Below are positions 4,763 to 61,011 of a stretch of 64,000 nt of DNA, piece after piece; position 1 is the first letter of the stretch, and the number at the start of each line of letters is the position of its first letter. The stretch is from a virus (Duplodnaviria; Caudoviricetes): positions 288,001 through 352,000 of the IMG/VR virus record IMGVR_UViG_3300014205_000170; one strand, given 5' to 3'. The notes beneath the pieces are model-generated. The model ran no database searches. It was given only the letters and a program-made list of their open reading frames with translations, and was not told the DNA's origin. The position numbers were made by a program, and so were the translations under genes.

Positions 4763-5445
4763 TTTTTTAGTTTTTTATATTTCCAAACAAAATTGTTGGA
4801 AGTTTTTAATATACCGCGACAAGCTCTTGAGATACCTGTTGGATTTATATTTAAACCTCTACCCGCTTCTCTAATGCTATTCCACTCTTTTATTAATATT
4901 TTATTTAAATCATATTGCAAAATTGGTTTAGATTTTATTTTTATATTATAATTTGACAAATCCTTTCTAATATTTCCTCGATTAACACTCTTTCCTGTAA
5001 TTGCATTTTTGTGTAATTGTCGCCATTTTTTTTCTCTTCTACATGCTTCTTCTGCTCCATATTTCTCATTCCAAATTTTTAATATCATTGCAACAGAGGG
5101 AGCATTTGCCTTTTTATTGATATTGTACCCATGTTGACTAGAATAAGATTGTTTATAGTTAAGCCAATAATCTTCTCTATTCAACAATAAATTTTCAGAT
5201 ACTGTTTCTAATATTTGAAATTCAAATACTTCTGACCCATATTTATTCCAAGCACGTTGAAGTTTATAATTATTGTGTTTATTTTTAATAAGGGCACGTT
5301 TATGCTGTTTAAATCTCTTGTACATATCATTTGAACTGCCAATATATAATTTTTGACTTAACACATTTATGATAGCATAAATTCCCACTATTTTATTTGT
5401 AACTTTCAATTGTATTAAACTTATTTTTTTTAGTAATTGCTTCAT
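4759..5445 (-). mobile_element. GIY-YIG homing endonuclease with C-terminal NUMOD1-like DNA-binding domain
   Basis: VGIYAIINVLSQKLYIGSS; KPILQYDL...WNSIREAGR...ISRAC; overlaps the 3' end of the upstream GT; start uncertain. Confidence 0.85.
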
Positions 5446-17517: not shown

Positions 17518-18376
17518 AATGTTGTCTTAAAATAGAACTGTTAACGCGACATTTCAATATTTTTAAAGCGCCATCTTTAATTTGTCTTACTCTTTCTCTT
17601 GTTAACTCAAAATATTCACCAATTTCTTCTAAAGTCATAGCCTGTTGACCTAATAAACCAAAATACATACATACAACAGATTTTTGTCTTGGAGTAAGTC
17701 TATCCAACACTTTTTCTAAGTCCGCTTTCATAGACTCTTTATTTAGGTCACTATCAGGACTGATGCTATCTTTGTTTGGTATAAAATCCATTAACGTTAA
17801 AGCGCCATCATCTTCTGAAATAGGAGTTTCTAATGAAACCGTTCTACCGGTCATCATTCTTACATCCTTAACTTTAACATCAATGCCTTCTAAGGATTGT
17901 TGCACTTCATCATCTGTTGGTTCTCTTTCTAAAATTTGTTCAAGATTAGAAATTGCTTTATTTACTTTATATATGGATGAAGTTTGATTGCTTGGAATAC
18001 GAATTAATCTGGATTGCTCTGCAAGTGATTGCATTATAGCTTGTCTAATCCACCAAACAGCATAAGAAATAAATTTAAATCCACGATTAGAATCAAATTT
18101 TTTGGCTGCTTTTATTAAACCCAAATTACCTTCATTCACCAAATCTTCTAAAGGAAGACCACGATTTTGGTATTGTTTTGCGACGGATATAACAAAACGA
18201 AGGTTACCACGAACTAATTTATCTAAGGCTTTATCATCACCGCTAGTAGCTTTTTTGGCTAAATCAATTTCCTGGGTATCAGTAAGGAGAGGAATCTTAC
18301 TGATTTCATTAAAATATTTTGTAATGGATTCACTATCTCTATTAGTTATCCTTTTGGTAATCTTAAGTTGTCTCAT
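17507..18376 (-). CDS. RpoD/SigA-like sigma-70 factor (Bacteroidota type)
   Basis: MRQLKIT, NLRFVISVAKQYQ, GFKFISYAVWWIRQ, TRERVRQIK. Confidence 0.95.
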   Translation of the reverse strand: MRQLKITKRITNRDSESITKYFNEISKIPLLTDTQEIDLAKKATSGDDKALDKLVRGNLRFVISVAKQYQNRGLPLEDLVNEGNLGLIKAAKKFDSNRGFKFISYAVWWIRQAIMQSLAEQSRLIRIPSNQTSSIYKVNKAISNLEQILEREPTDDEVQQSLEGIDVKVKDVRMMTGRTVSLETPISEDDGALTLMDFIPNKDSISPDSDLNKESMKADLEKVLDRLTPRQKSVVCMYFGLLGQQAMTLEEIGEYFELTRERVRQIKDGALKILKCRVNSSILRQHFDA

Positions 18377-52969: not shown

Positions 52970-53248
52970 ATGAAAACATTCATTATAAAATATAAATGTC
53001 AATTTTGTTCTCGGTTAAACTTTGAAAAACCGATGCCTCATAAATGTGTTGGTGGTTATCGAAGAAGAAAACTCATTTGGCACCAATATTTAGTACCTAA
53101 CCAAATTGTTCTGGTTGAAAAATTTTTCCCCGATAATCCAAGAAAAAACGATTATTATTTCATTTTAAAAAACACATTACCATTTTTTTCTTTAAATTCG
53201 TATCTAATAAAACGAAAAGGAGAAAAAAATAATGAAGAAACTATTTAA
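52970..53248 (+). CDS. Hypothetical protein (QIVLVEK motif)
   Basis: CxxC...HxC. Confidence 0.45.
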   Translation: MKTFIIKYKCQFCSRLNFEKPMPHKCVGGYRRRKLIWHQYLVPNQIVLVEKFFPDNPRKNDYYFILKNTLPFFSLNSYLIKRKGEKNNEETI

Positions 53249-54056
53249 AAATGACTGGGTTTCATTTTACATTGGTATTGACAGAAGTAGGTTTACTTTA
53301 AGTCCAGCTTCTTATTTTGATGAAAGATTCTACATCATTTTAACCCCAACTCTATTAATTCCTATTATAGGTGTGTTTTTTACCGGTTTAAGCTTCTGGT
53401 CTCTTGTATGGTTATTATTCATTCCATATGGTTATGGATGTCTATATATTCATCTTCCTATATATTCAGGTCTTGACGAATGTGACCCTCCGGAATATGG
53501 TTTTTATTTTTTTGGAGAAAATCTTTTAAGAATAAATTCATTTGTTGTTTGTAGGGGGAAAACTAGTAATAAATACTTTAACATGCCATGGTATTGGGTT
53601 TGGGAACGAACTAGTAAATTAAAAAAAGATGGTACTTGGCAACATGATTTGAGAAAAAAGAAATTTGATTTTTATACTAAAGAATGGGAAAACGAAGTTT
53701 GGAAAGAAGAATATCCGTTTACTTATATTTTAAAGAATGGTAATATACAACAAAGACTAGCGATAATTACTGTGCATGAAATGGAATGGCGTTGGAAAGC
53801 TTTAAAAATTTTACCATTTCCACGGATGATTCGTAAAAGTATCGATATTCAATTTGAATATGGGGGTCCAATTGAAAGAGAAATATTTTTTGAAAAACAA
53901 GGAAATAAATCCAAGTATTTAGAAAAATACACCGGAGAAGTTGGTGAAAGAACTGGAGGTTGGAAAGGCGGAACCACTGGGTGTAGTTACAGTATGCGAC
54001 AAAATGAAACTCCTCTTGAAACTTTAAGAAGAATGGAAAAAGAAAGAAAATTTTAG
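53232..54056 (+). CDS. Hypothetical membrane protein (REIFFEK motif)
   Basis: Transmembrane segment; GEVGERTGGWKGG. Confidence 0.6.
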   Translation: MKKLFKNDWVSFYIGIDRSRFTLSPASYFDERFYIILTPTLLIPIIGVFFTGLSFWSLVWLLFIPYGYGCLYIHLPIYSGLDECDPPEYGFYFFGENLLRINSFVVCRGKTSNKYFNMPWYWVWERTSKLKKDGTWQHDLRKKKFDFYTKEWENEVWKEEYPFTYILKNGNIQQRLAIITVHEMEWRWKALKILPFPRMIRKSIDIQFEYGGPIEREIFFEKQGNKSKYLEKYTGEVGERTGGWKGGTTGCSYSMRQNETPLETLRRMEKERKF

Positions 54057-54128
54057 TAAAAGCTTTAAATTTTAAAACTTTTTCTTAACTTTAACGTATA
54101 ATAAGAAAAATAGACTACTTATAATTAT

Positions 54129-54215
54129 ATGATTACTAAAAATACATATCACTATTTGACACTTAATGTGGTCGTGGCGCACTTTTTACAAGTCGTCCAG
54201 CCGGACTATATTTAA
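54129..54215 (+). CDS. Val-rich attenuator leader peptide (28 aa)
   Basis: MITKNTYHYLTLNVVVAHFLQVVQPDYI*; Val codons GTG GTC GTG...GTC GTC. Confidence 0.8.
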   Translation: MITKNTYHYLTLNVVVAHFLQVVQPDYI

Positions 54216-54240
54216 ACTTTAGTGTATTATAATACATTCA

Positions 54241-54275
54241 GACTCCGGCTAAACAAGTCGGAGTTTTTTATTTTT
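54241..54275 (+). terminator. Attenuator terminator upstream of ValRS
   Basis: actccggct/agtcggagt plus T-run; the 5' arm can alternatively pair with agccgga in the leader. Confidence 0.85.
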
Positions 54276-54289
54276 AAAAAATTAATTTT

Positions 54290-55642
54290 ATGAAAACAGA
54301 TAATAAATACAAAATAGATATGCCACCACCAACGATAAGTGGTAAATTACATATGGGTCACGCTTTTTCTTATACACAAATGGATTTTATAGCGCGATAT
54401 CAACGAATGAAAAATAAAGAGTTGATTTACCCATTTGGTTATGATAACAATGGAATACCAACAGAAAAGTTTGCTTACAAAAAAAGAATAACAGATACAC
54501 AAAAGATAATCGAACTTTCAAATGAAACTTCTAAAATGTATATGGAATTTTTCAATAATATAAATATGGGGTTTTCTAATCATAGTTATAACACATTTGA
54601 TAAGCTTTCCACTGAAATTGCCTTACTGTCTTTTTATGACCTCAAAGAGAAAGGGTTGCTTTATAAAGGAAAAGAAAATTATTCTTTTTGTACTTCTTGT
54701 AATAAATCGATTCCTAATTCTGAAATTGAAAATAATAAACACATTAGAGATAATGGTGATATTATTGAAAAAGAAGGGGAAGGTTATTTTATTAAAACCA
54801 AAGACTTTAAACAAGAACTTATAGAACAAATTGAAAAAATAGAATGGAAACCTGAAAAATTCAAGAATAGAATTTTAAGTTGGATTAATGATATGGATAG
54901 AGATTGGTCAATTGCTAGACGCAGAGATTATGGAATTTCAATTCCAGGAGAATCTGAACTAAAGTTTGATACATGGTTTACCTCTTCTTTAACTCCTCAA
55001 ATAGCATGGGCATCTCATACCGGTATTGCTTCTTTAGAATGTCCTATTTTTGATTTAAGATTTCAAGCACATGATATTATTAGTACTTGGGCGCTATATA
55101 CCATCATTAAATCTTATCACCACAATAAACAAATACCATGGAAACAGATTATTATCACTGGACATGCGCTTGATAAAAATGGTGATAAACTTGCAAAGAG
55201 TAAAGGAAATTGTACCACCACTGATTATTACATAAAAGAATTTGGTGGAGAAGGAATAAGATATTGGGCAGCTCAAACTCAAATTGGAACCGATACATTA
55301 TTAGATGATGAAACAATGAAAAATTGTAAAAAGCTTATGATTAAACTTAAAAATGCATATAAATTCATAGAGTTTCAAAAATCCAAAGAATGGCTTGGTT
55401 TCAATAAAGAGAAAGAAATTGAGTGGGGAACAATTAAAATAAAAATAGAAGAATATTTTGAACAAGGAGATTGGGCAAAAGCATTTGAAGAATTGTTTAA
55501 TTTCTTCTGGAAAAGATTTTGCGATATTTTTATTGAAGATTCAAAAAAAGAGAGTTGTTCACAAAGCTTAGAGCTAATTTTAAATGAAATGATGATTTAT
55601 TGGCAAATTTTCTTCCCAAAAATTCAAGAAAACATAAAATAA
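54290..55642 (+). CDS. valS: Minimal valyl-tRNA synthetase
   Basis: PPPTISGKLHMGHA (HIGH), DFIARYQRM, FDTWFTSS, QAHDII, KLAKSKGN (KMSKS); Val leader upstream. Confidence 0.85.
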   Translation: MKTDNKYKIDMPPPTISGKLHMGHAFSYTQMDFIARYQRMKNKELIYPFGYDNNGIPTEKFAYKKRITDTQKIIELSNETSKMYMEFFNNINMGFSNHSYNTFDKLSTEIALLSFYDLKEKGLLYKGKENYSFCTSCNKSIPNSEIENNKHIRDNGDIIEKEGEGYFIKTKDFKQELIEQIEKIEWKPEKFKNRILSWINDMDRDWSIARRRDYGISIPGESELKFDTWFTSSLTPQIAWASHTGIASLECPIFDLRFQAHDIISTWALYTIIKSYHHNKQIPWKQIIITGHALDKNGDKLAKSKGNCTTTDYYIKEFGGEGIRYWAAQTQIGTDTLLDDETMKNCKKLMIKLKNAYKFIEFQKSKEWLGFNKEKEIEWGTIKIKIEEYFEQGDWAKAFEELFNFFWKRFCDIFIEDSKKESCSQSLELILNEMMIYWQIFFPKIQENIK

Positions 55643-55826
55643 AACTGAAATTATTCTATTGATTTATAGAGAATTAAGAAAAAAAACATAAAAAAACTTT
55701 GTTTTATTGAAACTTTACCTTAAATTTGACGTTAGAATATAAAATTGTACTATTTATTATAAGTTGAACCCCATATAAATGGGAGATACAGTGCGGGGTC
55801 TCTCACAGCTTATTTAGAATTAGAAA

Positions 55827-55928
55827 ATGAAAAATGTAAATACATACACGGTTAATACACTAAGACAATTAGTGTTAGAACAACTTATAGAAAGTTGTCC
55901 AGCTGGGATATGTTCGTTTACAAGTTAA
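55827..55928 (+). CDS. Attenuator leader peptide (33 aa) of the tRNA array
   Basis: MKNVNTYTVNTLRQLVLEQLIESCPAGICSFTS*; contains the antiterminator agctggg. Confidence 0.7.
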   Translation: MKNVNTYTVNTLRQLVLEQLIESCPAGICSFTS

Positions 55929-55951
55929 TTATATATAACTAAACGTTCTTC

Positions 55952-55984
55952 AAGAACCCCGGCTTTAAAAGGTCGGGGTTTTTT
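55952..55984 (+). terminator. Attenuator terminator upstream of the tRNA array
   Basis: aaccccggct/ggtcggggtt plus T-run, ending about 14 nt before the first tRNA. Confidence 0.85.
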
Positions 55985-55998
55985 GTTTTATTGATATT

Positions 55999-56070
55999 GC
56001 CTTATTAGCTCAGTTGTAAGAGCGCTCGTTTCGTAAACGAGAGGTCATCAGGTCGAACTGATATGAGGCT
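55999..56070 (+). tRNA. tRNA-Thr(CGT), atypical T-loop
   Basis: Acceptor gccttat/atgaggc; ctcgt-ttCGTaa-acgag. Confidence 0.75.
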
Positions 56071-56081
56071 CAAAAAAATAT

Positions 56082-56168
56082 GCCTTCGTGGTGAAATTGG
56101 ACAGAGACACAAGGGTCTTAAAAACCCTCGGATTTAATTCCATGCGGATTCGAGTTCCGCCGAAGGTA
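56082..56168 (+). tRNA. tRNA-Leu(TAA)
   Basis: agggt-ctTAAaa-accct; long variable arm. Confidence 0.9.
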
Positions 56169-56181
56169 CAAAAAAAGAGAA

Positions 56182-56349
56182 ATGGGAAAAGTAGAAAAGA
56201 AAAAATTAAGATTACAAGAAAGGATTCAAACTTTAGAAAATGAATTAAGAACTTCTTTGACAAAAAAAACATCTGATGTAAAAGAAATCAATGTTGCTGT
56301 TCATCAAAGAAAAATTTATGATTTAAAATTAGAATTACAAAAAATGTAA
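56182..56349 (+). CDS. Small coiled-coil protein within the tRNA array (55 aa)
   Basis: MGKVEKKKLRLQERIQTLENELR...LELQKM*. Confidence 0.55.
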   Translation: MGKVEKKKLRLQERIQTLENELRTSLTKKTSDVKEINVAVHQRKIYDLKLELQKM

Positions 56350-56355
56350 CAACAC

Positions 56356-56429
56356 GCCTTCGTAGCACAACGGATTAGTGTCTCTGTTTTCTAAACAGGT
56401 GGGTGGAGGTTCGAATCCTCTCGAAGGTA
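56356..56429 (+). tRNA. tRNA-Arg(TCT)
   Basis: tctgt-ttTCTaa-acagg; ggttcgaatcc. Confidence 0.88.
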
Positions 56430-56449
56430 CAAATGGTTCTTTGACATAT

Positions 56450-56534
56450 GCCAGAATGGTGAAATCGTGTAGACACACCATCCTCAAAAGATGGCGCTAT
56501 AAAAAGCGTGAGAGTTCGAATCTCTCTTCTGGTA
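56450..56534 (+). tRNA. tRNA-Leu(CAA)
   Basis: ccatc-ctCAAaa-gatgg; variable arm. Confidence 0.9.
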
Positions 56535-56539
56535 CAATA

Positions 56540-56614
56540 GCTCCCTTAGCTCAGCTGGTTAGCAGCATCAGACTCATAATCTGAGGGTCGTTGGTTCGAG
56601 CCCAACAGGGAGCA
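56540..56614 (+). tRNA. tRNA with CAT anticodon (Met or Ile2)
   Basis: tcaga-ctCATaa-tctga. Confidence 0.9.
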
Positions 56615-56619
56615 CAAAT

Positions 56620-56704
56620 GTTACGGTATGCAAACTGGCTGAAGCACCTAGATTTTCAATCTAGTTTCGAAAGAAAATTGCAGGTTCGAACCCCGTCCGT
56701 AATA
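56620..56704 (+). tRNA. tRNA with TTC (Glu) anticodon and long variable arm
   Basis: ctaga-ttTTCaa-tctag; extra arm tttcgaaagaaa. Confidence 0.75.
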
Positions 56705-56709
56705 CAAAT

Positions 56710-56784
56710 GGCCACATAGCTCAATCGCGTTGGAGCAGGATGCTTATATCATCAAGGTTGGGAGTTCAAATCTCTCTGTGGCTA
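56710..56784 (+). tRNA. tRNA-Ile(TAT)
   Basis: gatg-ctTATat-catc; acceptor ggccaca/tgtggct. Confidence 0.8.
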
Positions 56785-56797
56785 CAAAAAAATAAAT

Positions 56798-56879
56798 GCT
56801 CCGTTGGCGGAATGCAGACGCACTTGGCTTAGGACCAAGCTCTCGAAAGGGAATGAAGATTCGAATTCTTCACGGAGTA
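56798..56879 (+). tRNA. tRNA-Leu(TAG)
   Basis: cttgg-ctTAGga-ccaag; variable arm. Confidence 0.9.
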
Positions 56880-56959
56880 CAAAATTGTTCTTTGAATATT
56901 TGAAATACATGTTATTTTAGAAATATAGTGTGTATAACATTTTTTGTCTATTTATAATC

Positions 56960-57421
56960 ATGAGAAATGATATAATAAAACAAAAAAAAATAATTTTGAA
57001 ATTAATAAATGAAAATAGACCAAAATCATTTATTTGTAAGTTTTTAGATTGTAGACCTCTTACGTTAGATAATTATTTAAAAAAGTGGAACATAAATTAT
57101 GTTGGGAATAAAGGAGGAAAGGGATATAAAATTTCACCGATAAAAAAAACAGCTATTCAATATATGAATAGCACTGGACATATAAGTTCTTATAAATTAG
57201 GGAAAAAACTTATAGAAGATGGATTAAAAGAAAAAAAATGCGAATGTTGTAATTTAACAAAATGGATAAATAAAGACATACCTTTAGAATTACATCACAA
57301 AGATGGAAATAGGTTTAATAATGAATTACAAAATTTACAATTATTATGTCCTAATTGTCATGCTTTAACTGAAAATTATGGTAGCAAAAATAAAAAAAAT
57401 AAAAATGGCCCATTCGTCTAG
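56960..57421 (+). mobile_element. HNH homing endonuclease inserted in the tRNA array
   Basis: CECC...LELHHKDGN...NLQLLCPNCH; 3' end overlaps tRNA-Glu. Confidence 0.88.
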
Positions 57422-57479
57422 GGGTTTAGGACGCTGCCCTTTCACGGCAGAAACACGGATTCGAATTCCGTATGGGCTA
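57407..57479 (+). tRNA. tRNA-Glu(TTC)
   Basis: ctgcc-ctTTCac-ggcag. Confidence 0.92.
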
Positions 57480-57488
57480 CAATAAAAT

Positions 57489-57561
57489 GCTCTTATCGAC
57501 AAGTGGTTTAAGTCACCGCTTTCTCAAAGCGGAGTCACGGGTTCAAGTCCCGTTAAGAGTA
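57489..57561 (+). tRNA. tRNA-Glu(CTC)
   Basis: ccgct-ttCTCaa-agcgg. Confidence 0.88.
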
Positions 57562-57566
57562 CAAAT

Positions 57567-57645
57567 GCCGATGTGATGTAATGGTAGCCATACTGGTTTA
57601 AGAAGCCAGTGCGAAAGCGTTTCGGTTCGAGTCCGAACATCGGTA
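57567..57645 (+). tRNA. tRNA-Leu(AAG)
   Basis: ctggt-ttAAGaa-gccag; short extra arm gcgaaagc. Confidence 0.85.
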
Positions 57646-57661
57646 CAAAAAAAGGAAAAAA

Positions 57662-57991
57662 ATGGAAACAACAGAAGTAAAAATTAATGCAATCGAAGTA
57701 AAAAAAGAACTGTATAAAAGTAAGGTAAATGCAAAATTAAGTCATTTTGACAAACCAAACTTGTATTACACAGTAGAATTGTCTACGGGAACATATCAGT
57801 TTCCTATTGCAACTACTGTAAAAAAAACATTAACTCTAATGGATGGAGATGAAGTTATTTCAATGTTTGACATTGATAAAGCTGCTCCGGACTTAGCAGG
57901 CGCTAACTTTGGTTTAGAGGTAAAAGCCTCTGATTTGAACCGTTGGATTGAGAGAGCAATAAAGAACGACGATTTTATAAAAATCAGTTAG
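57662..57991 (+). CDS. Hypothetical protein
   Basis: ORF. Confidence 0.55.
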   Translation: METTEVKINAIEVKKELYKSKVNAKLSHFDKPNLYYTVELSTGTYQFPIATTVKKTLTLMDGDEVISMFDIDKAAPDLAGANFGLEVKASDLNRWIERAIKNDDFIKIS

Positions 57992-58028
57992 TAGATTTTT
58001 TTGTGTTTATATTTATATATAAACGCAA

Positions 58029-58442
58029 ATGAAAAAATTTCTGTTAATATTTTTTATAGTTTTAAGTTTAGCGTGCAAATCTCAAACTAAAAATTTGTGG
58101 CAAAAAATTCCAGATGACGCAAAACATGTTTATTCTGGTGTGATAATTACAATGGTAACTGGTGATTTAGTTTATAAATATTCAAAAGGAAGAACAGGAT
58201 TAGCGGTAGGAGTTGGTTTTTTATCAGGAGTAACCGCAGGAGTGGCAAAAGAATTGATATGGGACAAGTGGATGGGAAAAGGCGTTCCGAGTAAGTGGGA
58301 TGCATTTAGTACTGCGTGGGGAGCAGGAATAGGCACTATATCACTTAGGGTAATGATAGATGTTAGAGAACGAAAGCAGTATGATGAATACTCAATAGAA
58401 AAATTAGGTAAAAAGAAAAAAAGAAGACATAGAAATGGTTAA
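58029..58442 (+). CDS. Putative lipoprotein/membrane protein (YfiM-like)
   Basis: Lipobox-like SLAC, DDAKH, GVAKELIWD, WDA. Confidence 0.6.
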   Translation: MKKFLLIFFIVLSLACKSQTKNLWQKIPDDAKHVYSGVIITMVTGDLVYKYSKGRTGLAVGVGFLSGVTAGVAKELIWDKWMGKGVPSKWDAFSTAWGAGIGTISLRVMIDVRERKQYDEYSIEKLGKKKKRRHRNG

Positions 58443-58515
58443 CATAACAATTAATATTCAACAACAACAGCAACAACAAACTCTAAATAAGGGTTCCGGA
58501 ATTGCTTTGTCTTGA
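58435..58515 (+). CDS. Poly-Gln attenuator leader peptide (26 aa)
   Basis: MVNITINIQQQQQQQTLNKGSGIALS*; 6 CAA + 1 CAG. Confidence 0.88.
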   Translation: MVNITINIQQQQQQQTLNKGSGIALS

Positions 58516-58537
58516 CGTTATTAATTTAACAAATTAC

Positions 58538-58571
58538 AAAAAGCCTGGAACTTAAAGTTTCAGGCTTTTTT
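58538..58571 (+). terminator. Attenuator terminator upstream of the tRNA-Gln cluster and GlnRS
   Basis: aagcctggaact/agtttcaggctt plus T-run; the 5' arm can pair with ggttccgg in the leader. Confidence 0.88.
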
Positions 58572-58577
58572 ATTTAT

Positions 58578-58648
58578 TGTCCTATAGTGTAATGGCAGCA
58601 CAAGAGATTTTGACTCTCTTAGTCTAGGTTCGAGTCCTAGTGGGACAA
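58578..58648 (+). tRNA. tRNA-Gln(TTG)
   Basis: agaga-ttTTGac-tctct. Confidence 0.92.
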
Positions 58649-58653
58649 CATAT

Positions 58654-58725
58654 TCCTCGTTGGTCTAATGGCAATGACGTTGGTTTTTGACACCAAAAGT
58701 GGTAGTTCGATTCTATCACGAGGAA
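58654..58725 (+). tRNA. tRNA-Gln(TTG)
   Basis: ttggt-ttTTGac-accaa. Confidence 0.88.
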
Positions 58726-58730
58726 CAAAT

Positions 58731-58803
58731 TGCTCCATAGTATAATGGCCTATTATCGCTGCCTTTGAAGCAGAAGACCTTGGTTCGATTCCAAGTGGAG
58801 CAT
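58731..58803 (+). tRNA. tRNA-Gln(TTG)
   Basis: ctgc-ctTTGaa-gcag. Confidence 0.88.
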
Positions 58804-58810
58804 CTAAAAT

Positions 58811-58883
58811 TGCCTTATAGTATAATGGTTATTATTCTCGTTTCTGAGACGATGAGATGTTGGTTCGAATCCAGCTTAGGTAA
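58811..58883 (+). tRNA. tRNA-Gln(CTG)
   Basis: tcgt-ttCTGag-acga. Confidence 0.82.
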
Positions 58884-58906
58884 CAAACAAAAAAAATCGT
58901 AACTTT

Positions 58907-59392
58907 ATGGTTATGAAAACGAGAGAAGAACAAATAAAAAATGCTACAGTTCAAATAGGCAATACTGTTAAGGTTAATAAGCGATTATTGGATAAAAAAC
59001 TATCAATAGAACTTTTTAAAGAAACTGCGGAAGAATTATTTAAAGAACATTCAGAATATTATAAGCCAAAACATTTTAATACTATTGTTTATAAATTGTT
59101 TTCTATGAAAAACGTTTTTGTTGCAACAGCTCCATGTGAAGATTTTTTTGATAAAAAAGGAAAATGGATTACAGAAATACCAACTCGTTCACACAGAAGC
59201 TTAGAAGCATTTGATATTATTGATTCTATTCAAAATTATTTAAATGAAGGAGCATTGGTATATTTATATACATTTTATAGTATGAAACAGGATATTGTTA
59301 CAGGTTATAGAAATAATGATTTTACAGACACAATAGTAGAACCAAATGTTGATACATATTGGTGGAGATTAATAGTAAAAAAAGAAGAATAA
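58907..59392 (+). CDS. Hypothetical protein in the Gln operon
   Basis: ORF between the tRNA-Gln genes and GlnRS. Confidence 0.55.
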   Translation: MVMKTREEQIKNATVQIGNTVKVNKRLLDKKLSIELFKETAEELFKEHSEYYKPKHFNTIVYKLFSMKNVFVATAPCEDFFDKKGKWITEIPTRSHRSLEAFDIIDSIQNYLNEGALVYLYTFYSMKQDIVTGYRNNDFTDTIVEPNVDTYWWRLIVKKEE

Positions 59393-59394
59393 TT

Positions 59395-61011
59395 ATGAAT
59401 TTTATTGAAGAAAAAATAATTGAAAAAGGAAATGTTGAGAAATTTAAACTTAGATTTCCACCAGAAAATAATGGCCACCTTCATGTTGGTCATGCGAAAT
59501 CCATATGTCTTAACTTTGGGTTGTCTGAAAAATACAATAGACCTTGTAATTTAAGATTTGATGATACAAATCCTTCTAATGAATCAGATGAATATACAAA
59601 GTCTATTATAAAAGATATTGAATGGTTAAATTATAAGCCGGCAGAAATTTTACATACTTCTGACTATTTCTCTTTTCTTTATGAATCAGCCATAAAATTA
59701 ATCAAAAAAGGATTGGCATATGTTGACGATTCAACATCAGAAGAAATTGCAAAATTAAAAGGTACTCCAACTATGTCTGGAAAACCGTCTCCTTATTATT
59801 CGCGTACCGTTGAAGAAAATTTAGATTTGTTCGAAAGAATGAAAAACGGAGAGTTTACAGAAGGTTCAAAAATTCTTAGAGCTAAAATTGATATGGCTTC
59901 TCCTAATATGATTTTAAGAGACCCAGTGATGTATAGAATTATAAATACAACACATCATCATACAGGAGATGTTTGGAAAATTTATCCAATGTATGATTTC
60001 GCACATCCTTTATCAGATTATACTGAAGGAATCACAGATTCTTTATGTACTTTAGAATTTGAAGTTCATAGACCACTTTATAATTGGTTTTTGGAAAATT
60101 TGAATTTACCAAATCCATTGCCGGAAGAAACAGAATTTGCTCGTTTAAACATTGAATATACAGTACTTTCAAAACGTAAATTAAAAAGATTGGTTGAAGA
60201 GAAATTTGTTTCAGGATGGGACGACCCAAGAATGCCAACCATTTCAGGATTAAGAAGAAGAGGATATACTCCAACAGCTATTAAAGATTTTTGTGAACGA
60301 GTTGGCGTTACAAAAAAAGAATCTTTAATAAGTTATTTGCTTTTAGAAGAATGTTTAAGAAATGACTTAAATAAATCTACCAATAGATTTATGGGAATAA
60401 TGAATCCTGTTAAAATAACAATTACAAACTGGAATAATGGCGTTGAAATGGTTGAAGTTGAGAACAATCCAGAGGATGAAACTGCCGGAAAAAGATTAAT
60501 TCCTTTTTCAAAAGAATTGTGGATTGATAGAGACGATTTTAGAGAAGAAGCTGATAATAAATTTTTCAGATTAAAATTAGGGAGTGAAGTTAGATTGAAA
60601 GGTGCTTATGTCATAAAAGCAGAAGAAGTGATTAAGAATGGAGATGTTATTACGGAAATAAAATGTACATATGACCCTTTAACGAAATCTGGATTAGGCA
60701 CTAACAGAAAAGTTAAAGGAACAATTCATTGGGTTTCTTGCGAACATGGAGTTAAGGCAGAAGTTAGAGAATATTCAAAATTATTCACTCATATCACACC
60801 GGATAAGTCTGAAGATGATTTTGTAAACTATATTGATGCCAACTCTTTGGTTATTAATAACAATGCAATATTTGAACCGGCTGTTTTAAATTGTATTCCT
60901 GGAAAACCAGTTCAAATGATAAGAGTAGGTTATTACGTAAGAGATACGAATGATGAATCTCTTATTTTTAATAAGACCGTGTCTCTTAAGGAGGATAAGT
61001 ATAAATCATAG
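59395..61011 (+). CDS. glnS: Glutaminyl-tRNA synthetase
   Basis: RFPPENNGHLHVGHAKS, LRFDDTNP, IYPMYDFAH, SLCTLEF, LSKRKL, WDDPRMPTISGLRRRG; start placed at MNFIEE. Confidence 0.95.
   Translation: MNFIEEKIIEKGNVEKFKLRFPPENNGHLHVGHAKSICLNFGLSEKYNRPCNLRFDDTNPSNESDEYTKSIIKDIEWLNYKPAEILHTSDYFSFLYESAIKLIKKGLAYVDDSTSEEIAKLKGTPTMSGKPSPYYSRTVEENLDLFERMKNGEFTEGSKILRAKIDMASPNMILRDPVMYRIINTTHHHTGDVWKIYPMYDFAHPLSDYTEGITDSLCTLEFEVHRPLYNWFLENLNLPNPLPEETEFARLNIEYTVLSKRKLKRLVEEKFVSGWDDPRMPTISGLRRRGYTPTAIKDFCERVGVTKKESLISYLLLEECLRNDLNKSTNRFMGIMNPVKITITNWNNGVEMVEVENNPEDETAGKRLIPFSKELWIDRDDFREEADNKFFRLKLGSEVRLKGAYVIKAEEVIKNGDVITEIKCTYDPLTKSGLGTNRKVKGTIHWVSCEHGVKAEVREYSKLFTHITPDKSEDDFVNYIDANSLVINNNAIFEPAVLNCIPGKPVQMIRVGYYVRDTNDESLIFNKTVSLKEDKYKS

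Follow-up and report, generated by a model that had tools for sequence, protein, structure and literature searches.

A leader peptide upstream of a jumbo-phage tRNA array is predicted to be a multivalent transcription attenuator

In enterobacteria, multivalent leader attenuators are found at ilvGMEDA (Leu/Ile/Val) and thrL (Thr/Ile). A synthetase operon is controlled by an attenuator in the case of E. coli pheST (pheM), and attenuators have reportedly been predicted for other aminoacyl-tRNA synthetase operons in earlier work. T-box riboswitches represent a tRNA-responsive type of antitermination that acts on translation-supply genes. Leader-peptide attenuation has been indicated in Flavobacterium (PMC9723704), and theory predicts that a low fraction of regulatory codons results in low sensitivity (PMC1183508).

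The leader described here was found in a 64,000-nt window (the whole stretch of DNA that was analysed) from a complete virus record of 518,809 bp, a jumbo phage genome of 30% GC that has direct terminal repeats and codes for about 50 tRNAs and a tmRNA. The leader is located upstream of an array of 11 tRNAs. On the basis of the sequence, in silico alternative pairings, codon enrichment and covariation, we consider it highly likely that this is a multivalent, ribosome-dependent leader-peptide transcription attenuator with tRNA genes as its cargo. The phage probably makes this set of tRNAs only when the corresponding codons are decoded slowly. That the leader is translated, that coupling takes place and that termination is regulated is inferred, as is the physiological trigger.

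As in ilvGMEDA and thrL, and as in trpL, hisL and leuL (PMC1183508), there is a short leader ORF and an intrinsic terminator, pairings of the 1:2, 2:3 and 3:4 type are predicted, and the regulatory codons are located just before the antiterminator strand. With a leader ORF, a terminator, a predicted mutually exclusive antiterminator and regulatory codons that are tied to the cargo, the locus shares these sequence features with the leader-peptide attenuator class. In contrast to the enterobacterial attenuators, it is encoded by a phage, its cargo consists of tRNA genes instead of biosynthetic enzymes, five or six amino acids are covered, for the most part with one codon each, and leaders of this kind are rewritten when tRNAs move between arrays. 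Assignment to the amino-acid biosynthesis attenuator families (thrL, ilvL, leuL) was rejected because of the tRNA cargo and because no Rfam leader model reached its cut-off between positions 54000 and 60000, a sub-threshold match to Thr_leader (31 bits versus 55) being the only one, and this on the neighbouring Gln leader. As for pheST, feedback would act on charged-tRNA supply and not on amino-acid synthesis, and the neighbouring valS and glnS modules resemble pheST closely; unlike pheST, the tRNAs themselves would be controlled, several of them together. A T-box riboswitch was also rejected, as the Rfam search of 54000-60000 returned no T-box match up to E=1; in contrast to a T-box, sensing would require a translated ORF and would cover many codons.

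Huge phages (Al-Shayeb et al. 2020, PMC7162821) have an equal gene content, with tRNA arrays and synthetases, and Pro/Asp and Gln leaders of the same design were found in the public huge phage LR745206. The string "attenuat" is absent from the main text of PMC7162821. No paper describing tRNA genes under the control of an attenuator was found, in a search outside of which most subscription papers lay. The mechanism class is textbook knowledge, but we found nothing published on such a target, on as many inputs or on attenuators wired in series.

Table 1. Features of the leader, its tRNA array and the adjacent modules (window coordinates).
Feature	Start	End	Strand	Remarks
Val module	54129	55642	+	Val-rich leader 54129-54215, terminator 54243-54263, short valS 54290-55642
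Candidate promoter, Bacteroidota primary-sigma type	55698	55728	+	TTTG 55698-55701, 19-nt spacer, TAAATTTG 55721-55728
5'-UTR stem-loop (predicted)	55760	55812	+	folds in window and L114, with compensatory changes between them
Leader ORF	55827	55928	+	33 codons / 33 aa; about 94 nt after expected start site
Segment 1, protector strand (predicted)	55835	55853	+	codons 3-9 including ACG; pairs with codons 25-32
Core control block	55860	55892	+	codons 12-22: 8 exactly cognate to array, 2 Gln, 1 other
Segment 2, antiterminator 5' strand (predicted)	55901	55907	+	pairs with 55958-55964 (terminator 5' arm)
Intrinsic terminator (predicted), segments 3 and 4 and U tract	55952	55985	+	14 pairs
tRNA-Thr(CGT)	55999	56070	+	atypical T arm; missed by ARAGORN; Rfam RF00005, 56.4 bits
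tRNA-Leu(TAA), Arg(TCT), Leu(CAA), CAT, Glu(TTC, long extra arm), Ile(TAT), Leu(TAG)	56082	56880	+	
55-aa ORF within array	56182	56349	+	no family; conserved in L114 and L004
HNH endonuclease gene within array	56960	57421	+	PHROG 14736, E 5e-28
tRNA-Glu(TTC), Glu(CTC), Leu(AAG)	57407	57646	+	last three of the array
Gln module	58435	58884	+	seven-Gln leader 58435-58515, terminator 58543-58565, four tRNA-Gln

For the candidate promoter (TTTG-N19-TAnnTTTG), the Bacteroidota consensus and the -12 to -5 position were taken from PMC9723704, and transcription is expected to start near 55733. A TAnnTTTG box with a TTG upstream is present in all six orthologues (see below). Genome-wide, 48 of 117 matches are intergenic, compared to an intergenic share of 14% of the genome. 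The stem-loop in the 5'-UTR is absent from the four remaining orthologues and has no Rfam match, and a pattern search for further copies in viral contigs resulted in ten matches, all of them unrelated. Its internal loop contains a CCCC to which the GGGG of the hairpin could pair.

The earlier note on this DNA had read the leader as a codon index of the array. Its codons are indeed located where they had been placed (ACG at 55848, CTA at 55860, AGA at 55863, TTA at 55869 and 55875, GAA at 55878 and 55890, CTT at 55884 and ATA at 55887). The cognate array of 11 tRNAs is present downstream, ten of them being reported by ARAGORN and tRNA-Thr(CGT) by Rfam, and Leu-CAA and Glu-CTC are correctly described as having no exact codon, since TTG and GAG are absent from the leader. 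Chance was modelled from genome codon usage, where exact-cognate codons represent 20.7% of all codons. For the whole leader, 10 of 32 codons are exact-cognate (p=0.11), and the occurrence of at least 7 distinct cognate codons has a p of about 0.02. Some stretch of 15 codons with at least 9 matches, at least 7 of them distinct, is found with a p of about 4e-4 when the choice of the stretch is allowed for, with real genes and simulation giving the same picture. When the region is bounded by the antiterminator and not by eye (codons 6-22), 9 of 17 codons are cognate (p=0.003); only 1 of 11 is cognate in codons 23-33. The codon match is real but local, being confined to the control region, so that a match above codon usage is seen for this region but not for the leader as a whole. 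Three Leu codons for three isoacceptors are present as claimed, but this is unsurprising by itself (three classes among four Leu codons, p=0.42). Given the peptide that is encoded, 7 distinct exact codons have a p of 0.087 and 10 exact matches a p of 0.021.

Beyond the earlier note, we found two Gln codons as well as the predicted terminator/antiterminator pair on which a sensing function of the leader would rest. The leader alone is predicted to fold with -22 kcal/mol, and an equivalent of the long protector helix is predicted in all six orthologues. The antiterminator 5' strand is thus predicted to have codons 3-9 as an alternative partner. The energy of the antiterminator duplex (-15.2 kcal/mol) was equalled by none of 200 shuffles, and three of its base pairs have compensatory changes across the six orthologues. 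The core stem of the terminator begins 28 nt past the leader stop, between leader and array. An initial switch model, in which any pairing of the terminator arm was counted, turned out to be uninformative for the window and was rejected in favour of a helix-specific equilibrium model with a 30-nt ribosome mask. The full-length RNA is predicted to fold to the terminator. In the model, a ribosome with its A site at codons 3-21 gives the antiterminator a probability of about 1.0, which drops to 0.28 at codon 22 and to 0 at codons 23-32, where the ribosome blocks the antiterminator. The cognate block ends at this predicted switch boundary (codon 21/22), and the same boundary is obtained for L114, L018 and L110. 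At equilibrium, the antiterminator is also the favoured structure (0.96-0.99) in naked RNA and when the ribosome has reached codons 33-34, so that the off state would depend on timing or on re-forming of the protector. ACG, CAA and CTT are located in RNA stems (ACG in the protector, CAA-CTT in a hairpin that is kept in L114), and their conservation is therefore not independent evidence. As a control, we looked at 51 other terminators of this genome: a leader-like ORF was found at 7, and a significant antiterminator at none of them.

In the proposed mechanism, host RNA polymerase would start near 55733 and a ribosome would translate the leader. Slow decoding up to codon 21 (four Leu codons, Glu, Arg-AGA, Ile-ATA, two Gln codons and possibly Thr-ACG) would leave 55901-55907 free to pair with the 5' arm of the terminator, and transcription would enter the 11 tRNA genes and probably continue to the Gln module. 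With fast decoding, the ribosome would cover the antiterminator strand and the terminator would form. The signal would be the supply of charged tRNA for these codons, wobble included, and thus the array would correct its own shortage. Starvation and tRNA loss would look alike to a ribosome; as extra tRNA helps against tRNA loss and not against starvation, depletion or cleavage of tRNAs during infection appears to be the likelier trigger. Arg, Ile and Thr have one leader codon apiece, and such single-copy inputs should each be weak because a low fraction of regulatory codons lowers sensitivity (PMC1183508).

A genome-wide terminator scan revealed that a leader precedes each of five tRNA arrays and, in addition, valS. 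Among the sister leaders, seven Gln codons are found before four tRNA-Gln and five Lys codons before five tRNA-Lys, while a leader with Ser, His, Asn, Phe and Thr codons precedes tRNAs for those amino acids. In a sister leader of 46 codons, 22 of the 25 control codons are cognate to its array of 21 tRNAs. All five leaders of the genome reach their highest score with their own array, and among 120 pairings the actual one has rank 1 at the amino-acid, wobble and exact level; the leader described here is the weakest of the five at the amino-acid level (z 2.5). Isoacceptors are split between arrays within the genome: ATA and AGA occur here together with Ile-TAT and Arg-TCT, and ATT occurs three times in the leader of the array with Ile-GAT.

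Several observations concern the neighbouring modules. ValRS has only 450 aa, which we take to be about half the usual bacterial size, and many relatives are of equal size. While valS has its own Val-rich leader here, it is found inside a Leu/Val array operon in orthologous loci. The start of the Gln leader overlaps the end of the preceding gene, and glnS follows at 59395-61011. In host glnS loci (a Bacteroidota-dominated set, n=67), an upstream terminator was found in two, with a leader in neither. Further leader/array modules begin at 419729, 422198 and 427205 (whole-record positions; locus L001). The first of these leaders has Lys codons although its array lacks tRNA-Lys, and a promoter-less Lys module follows, a possible second cascade.

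Related loci were gathered via valS, glnS and two array ORFs, and their leaders were called automatically. Of the 50 automatic pairs, four were excluded (two mis-called leaders, one truncated, and one for which no antiterminator was found), and a few missed tRNAs were entered by hand after inspection. The 46 leader/array pairs analysed, five from this genome and 41 from relatives, have a mean z of 5.8 on their own array compared to 0.5 on others. The frequency of cognate codons is highest at 4-10 codons before the antiterminator strand; they occur at -5 in 44 and at -7 in 42 of the 46 leaders, compared to 7.4 expected, and are at background from -2 onward. The spacing between leader stop and terminator stem is 20-37 nt. 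When each of the 16 families was represented by one leader, none of 5000 permutations reached the observed score, and this was true in all 20 draws.

Based on sequence and gene neighbourhood, six of the leaders are orthologues (those of the window, L114, L112, L018, L032 and L110). The leader ORF is conserved in all of them and has, in the closest orthologue L114, the same length, with every substitution being frame-preserving. Among the six, Glu/Thr are swapped for Phe/Val in leader and array together. Glu codons are found solely in the three leaders with tRNA-Glu in the array, Phe codons solely in the three with tRNA-Phe, and Thr codons solely in the two with tRNA-Thr; there are 3-4 Val codons in leaders with tRNA-Val and 0-2 in those without. 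This is the covariation between leader codons and tRNA content in relatives which the earlier note had proposed to look for. With the match above codon usage in the control region, neither of the outcomes that the earlier note had named as refuting its reading was observed. In L114, all 9 cognate positions stay cognate, two of them by change (TTA to TTG, GAA to TTA); 4 of the 8 other positions change their amino acid. The L112 leader contains Arg and Ile codons, and no such tRNA was detected in its array.

A short AT-rich ORF might happen to precede an ordinary terminator and match a large array with its common codons just by chance. The whole-leader p value of 0.11 is in line with this, as is the combined share of TTA, GAA, ATA and AGA, about 16% of codons, but ORF, promoter and the 20-37 nt spacing are conserved, the antiterminator is compensated, and leaders match their arrays both genome-wide and across phages, so that we assign hardly any weight to this explanation. 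The leader could also be a general sensor of translation speed or coupling, where any slowing of the ribosome opens the array and single codons matter little. This would fit to the many different single codons and to the prediction that the antiterminator forms at every ribosome position from codon 3 to 21 as well as in naked RNA. Such a sensor, which we regard as quite improbable, need not track array content, yet the leaders do so in 16 families and in the orthologue swap.

The attenuator might work at the amino-acid level only, sensing Leu, Glu, Ile, Arg, Thr and Gln, with the choice among synonymous codons resulting from AT bias and RNA pairing. Consistent with this, exact Watson-Crick matches show no enrichment over the 34 non-Gln leaders once the amino acid is fixed (96 observed, 113.5 expected), and the six orthologues have 36 where 36.0 are expected. 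An exact Watson-Crick index was thus rejected as a general rule, and the strict one-codon-per-anticodon version of the earlier note's multi-input isoacceptor sensor is unsupported. Furthermore, ACG and the orthologues' CGN Arg codons lie in protector segment 1, which must mimic the terminator arm; ATA is common in control regions of leaders without tRNA-Ile (18 of 34), and CGN is frequent past the control region in those without tRNA-Arg (9 of 15). The positional profile peaks far away from codon 8 (ACG), and Thr sensing is the weakest link. Against an index restricted to amino acids, wobble-inclusive matches amount to 79 of 92 compared to 60.4 expected (Arg 15 of 17, Ile 7 of 8), ATA accounts for 7 of 8 Ile codons with Ile-TAT arrays but for 0 of 6 with Ile-GAT arrays, where all six are ATT/ATC, and the Leu codons across relatives cover 21 decoding classes compared to 15.6 expected (p=0.002), all of these counts including related sequences. 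In addition, extra tRNA would not be expected to relieve a lack of amino acid. We consider amino-acid-only control rather unlikely and lean, with modest confidence, towards sensing of isoacceptor classes, wobble included, a signal for which RNA pairing and kinship are partial confounders. The multiple inputs and the isoacceptor-class match across relatives are what stands of the sensor that had been proposed.

Leader codons 14 and 19 are CAA and are conserved in L114, and the array contains no tRNA-Gln. A Gln codon is found in 13 of 14 leaders which have a tRNA-Gln within 9.5 kb downstream, compared to 1 of 20 others, with about three independent families being represented. When Gln is counted, which was done post hoc, 10 of the 11 codons from 12 to 22 are accounted for. 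Both of these conserved codons are probably there for the Gln module downstream. Neither in the window nor in L114 was a full promoter or terminator found between this terminator and the Gln leader; the interval contains bare TAnnTTTG boxes at 56991 and 57904, which could be internal promoters. The co-occurrence with Gln and the promoter/terminator-free interval suggest that attenuators act in series, while the two bare -7 boxes and the Gln leaders of several relatives, which have their own promoter, count against a cascade. It is conceivable, although we rate this as somewhat short of an even chance, that the leaders constitute a closed-loop tRNA surveillance with isoacceptor resolution, where they report lost decoding classes and free the replacement set, and where serial attenuators carry each other's codons. 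If true, classes might be lost, e.g., from cleavage by host anticodon nucleases, a Gln shortage would pass this gate to the Gln module 2.6 kb downstream, and leaders could be read as a record of the tRNAs that run short in infected cells.

It has long been an open question why phages carry tRNAs, with codon-bias compensation on one side and replacement of tRNAs destroyed or drained in infection on the other. An array that is opened only upon slow reading of its own codons would favour on-demand replacement, and the question becomes testable with a short (~300-nt) reporter. The scope of leader-peptide attenuation would widen beyond enzyme operons and take in tRNA genes as well as viruses, and its regulatory codons would be altered along with the movement of tRNAs between arrays.

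The array itself has several peculiarities. As in the window, tRNA-Thr(CGT) heads the array of L114. The CAT tRNA carries C4-G69 and C5-G68, which we take to be TilS/Ile2 determinants, and is probably an Ile2 tRNA; TilS was looked for in the phage genome and not found. The tRNA-Glu(TTC) at 56620-56705 has a long extra arm and A73, traits more typical of Leu tRNAs, and a short-armed tRNA-Glu is found at the matching place in L114. The A34 anticodon of tRNA-Leu(AAG) (57567-57646), which is rare in bacteria, occurs in 5 of 6 orthologous arrays, and a Pro(AGG) tRNA is likewise present in the genome. The HNH endonuclease gene overlaps the start of tRNA-Glu at 57407. It is missing from the L114 array, a similar gene is found in L112, and it is probably a mobile insert.

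The nearest cellular matches of the phage glnS are from Flavobacteriales and other Bacteroidota (55-58%), which together with the Bacteroidota-type promoter before the leader points to a species of the Bacteroidota as the probable host. No close cultured relative was found among 50,697 phage records. The genome codes for three sigma-70 proteins, and an RNA polymerase beta gene was looked for in it and not found. The 82,120-bp contig with loci L021 and L032 is filed in NCBI under a Nanoarchaeota MAG; it contains a locus of this phage type with Bacteroidota-type promoters and is probably a mis-binned phage contig. ARAGORN reported a permuted-type tmRNA at 17780-18274 and, at 4818 and 17799, two tRNA-like elements whose anticodon loop has 8 nt (all whole-record positions). 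Three more class I synthetase genes were recognized by motif (Met-, Leu- and Ile-like; 82898-84352, 113426-114700 and 193906-195873, whole-record positions), with no evident leader-terminator upstream of them. An Acb3 homologue (CBASS inhibitor; PF25187, E 6e-37) is encoded at 53232-54056 of the window, just 5' of the tRNA-supply region, and is found upstream in L114 too.
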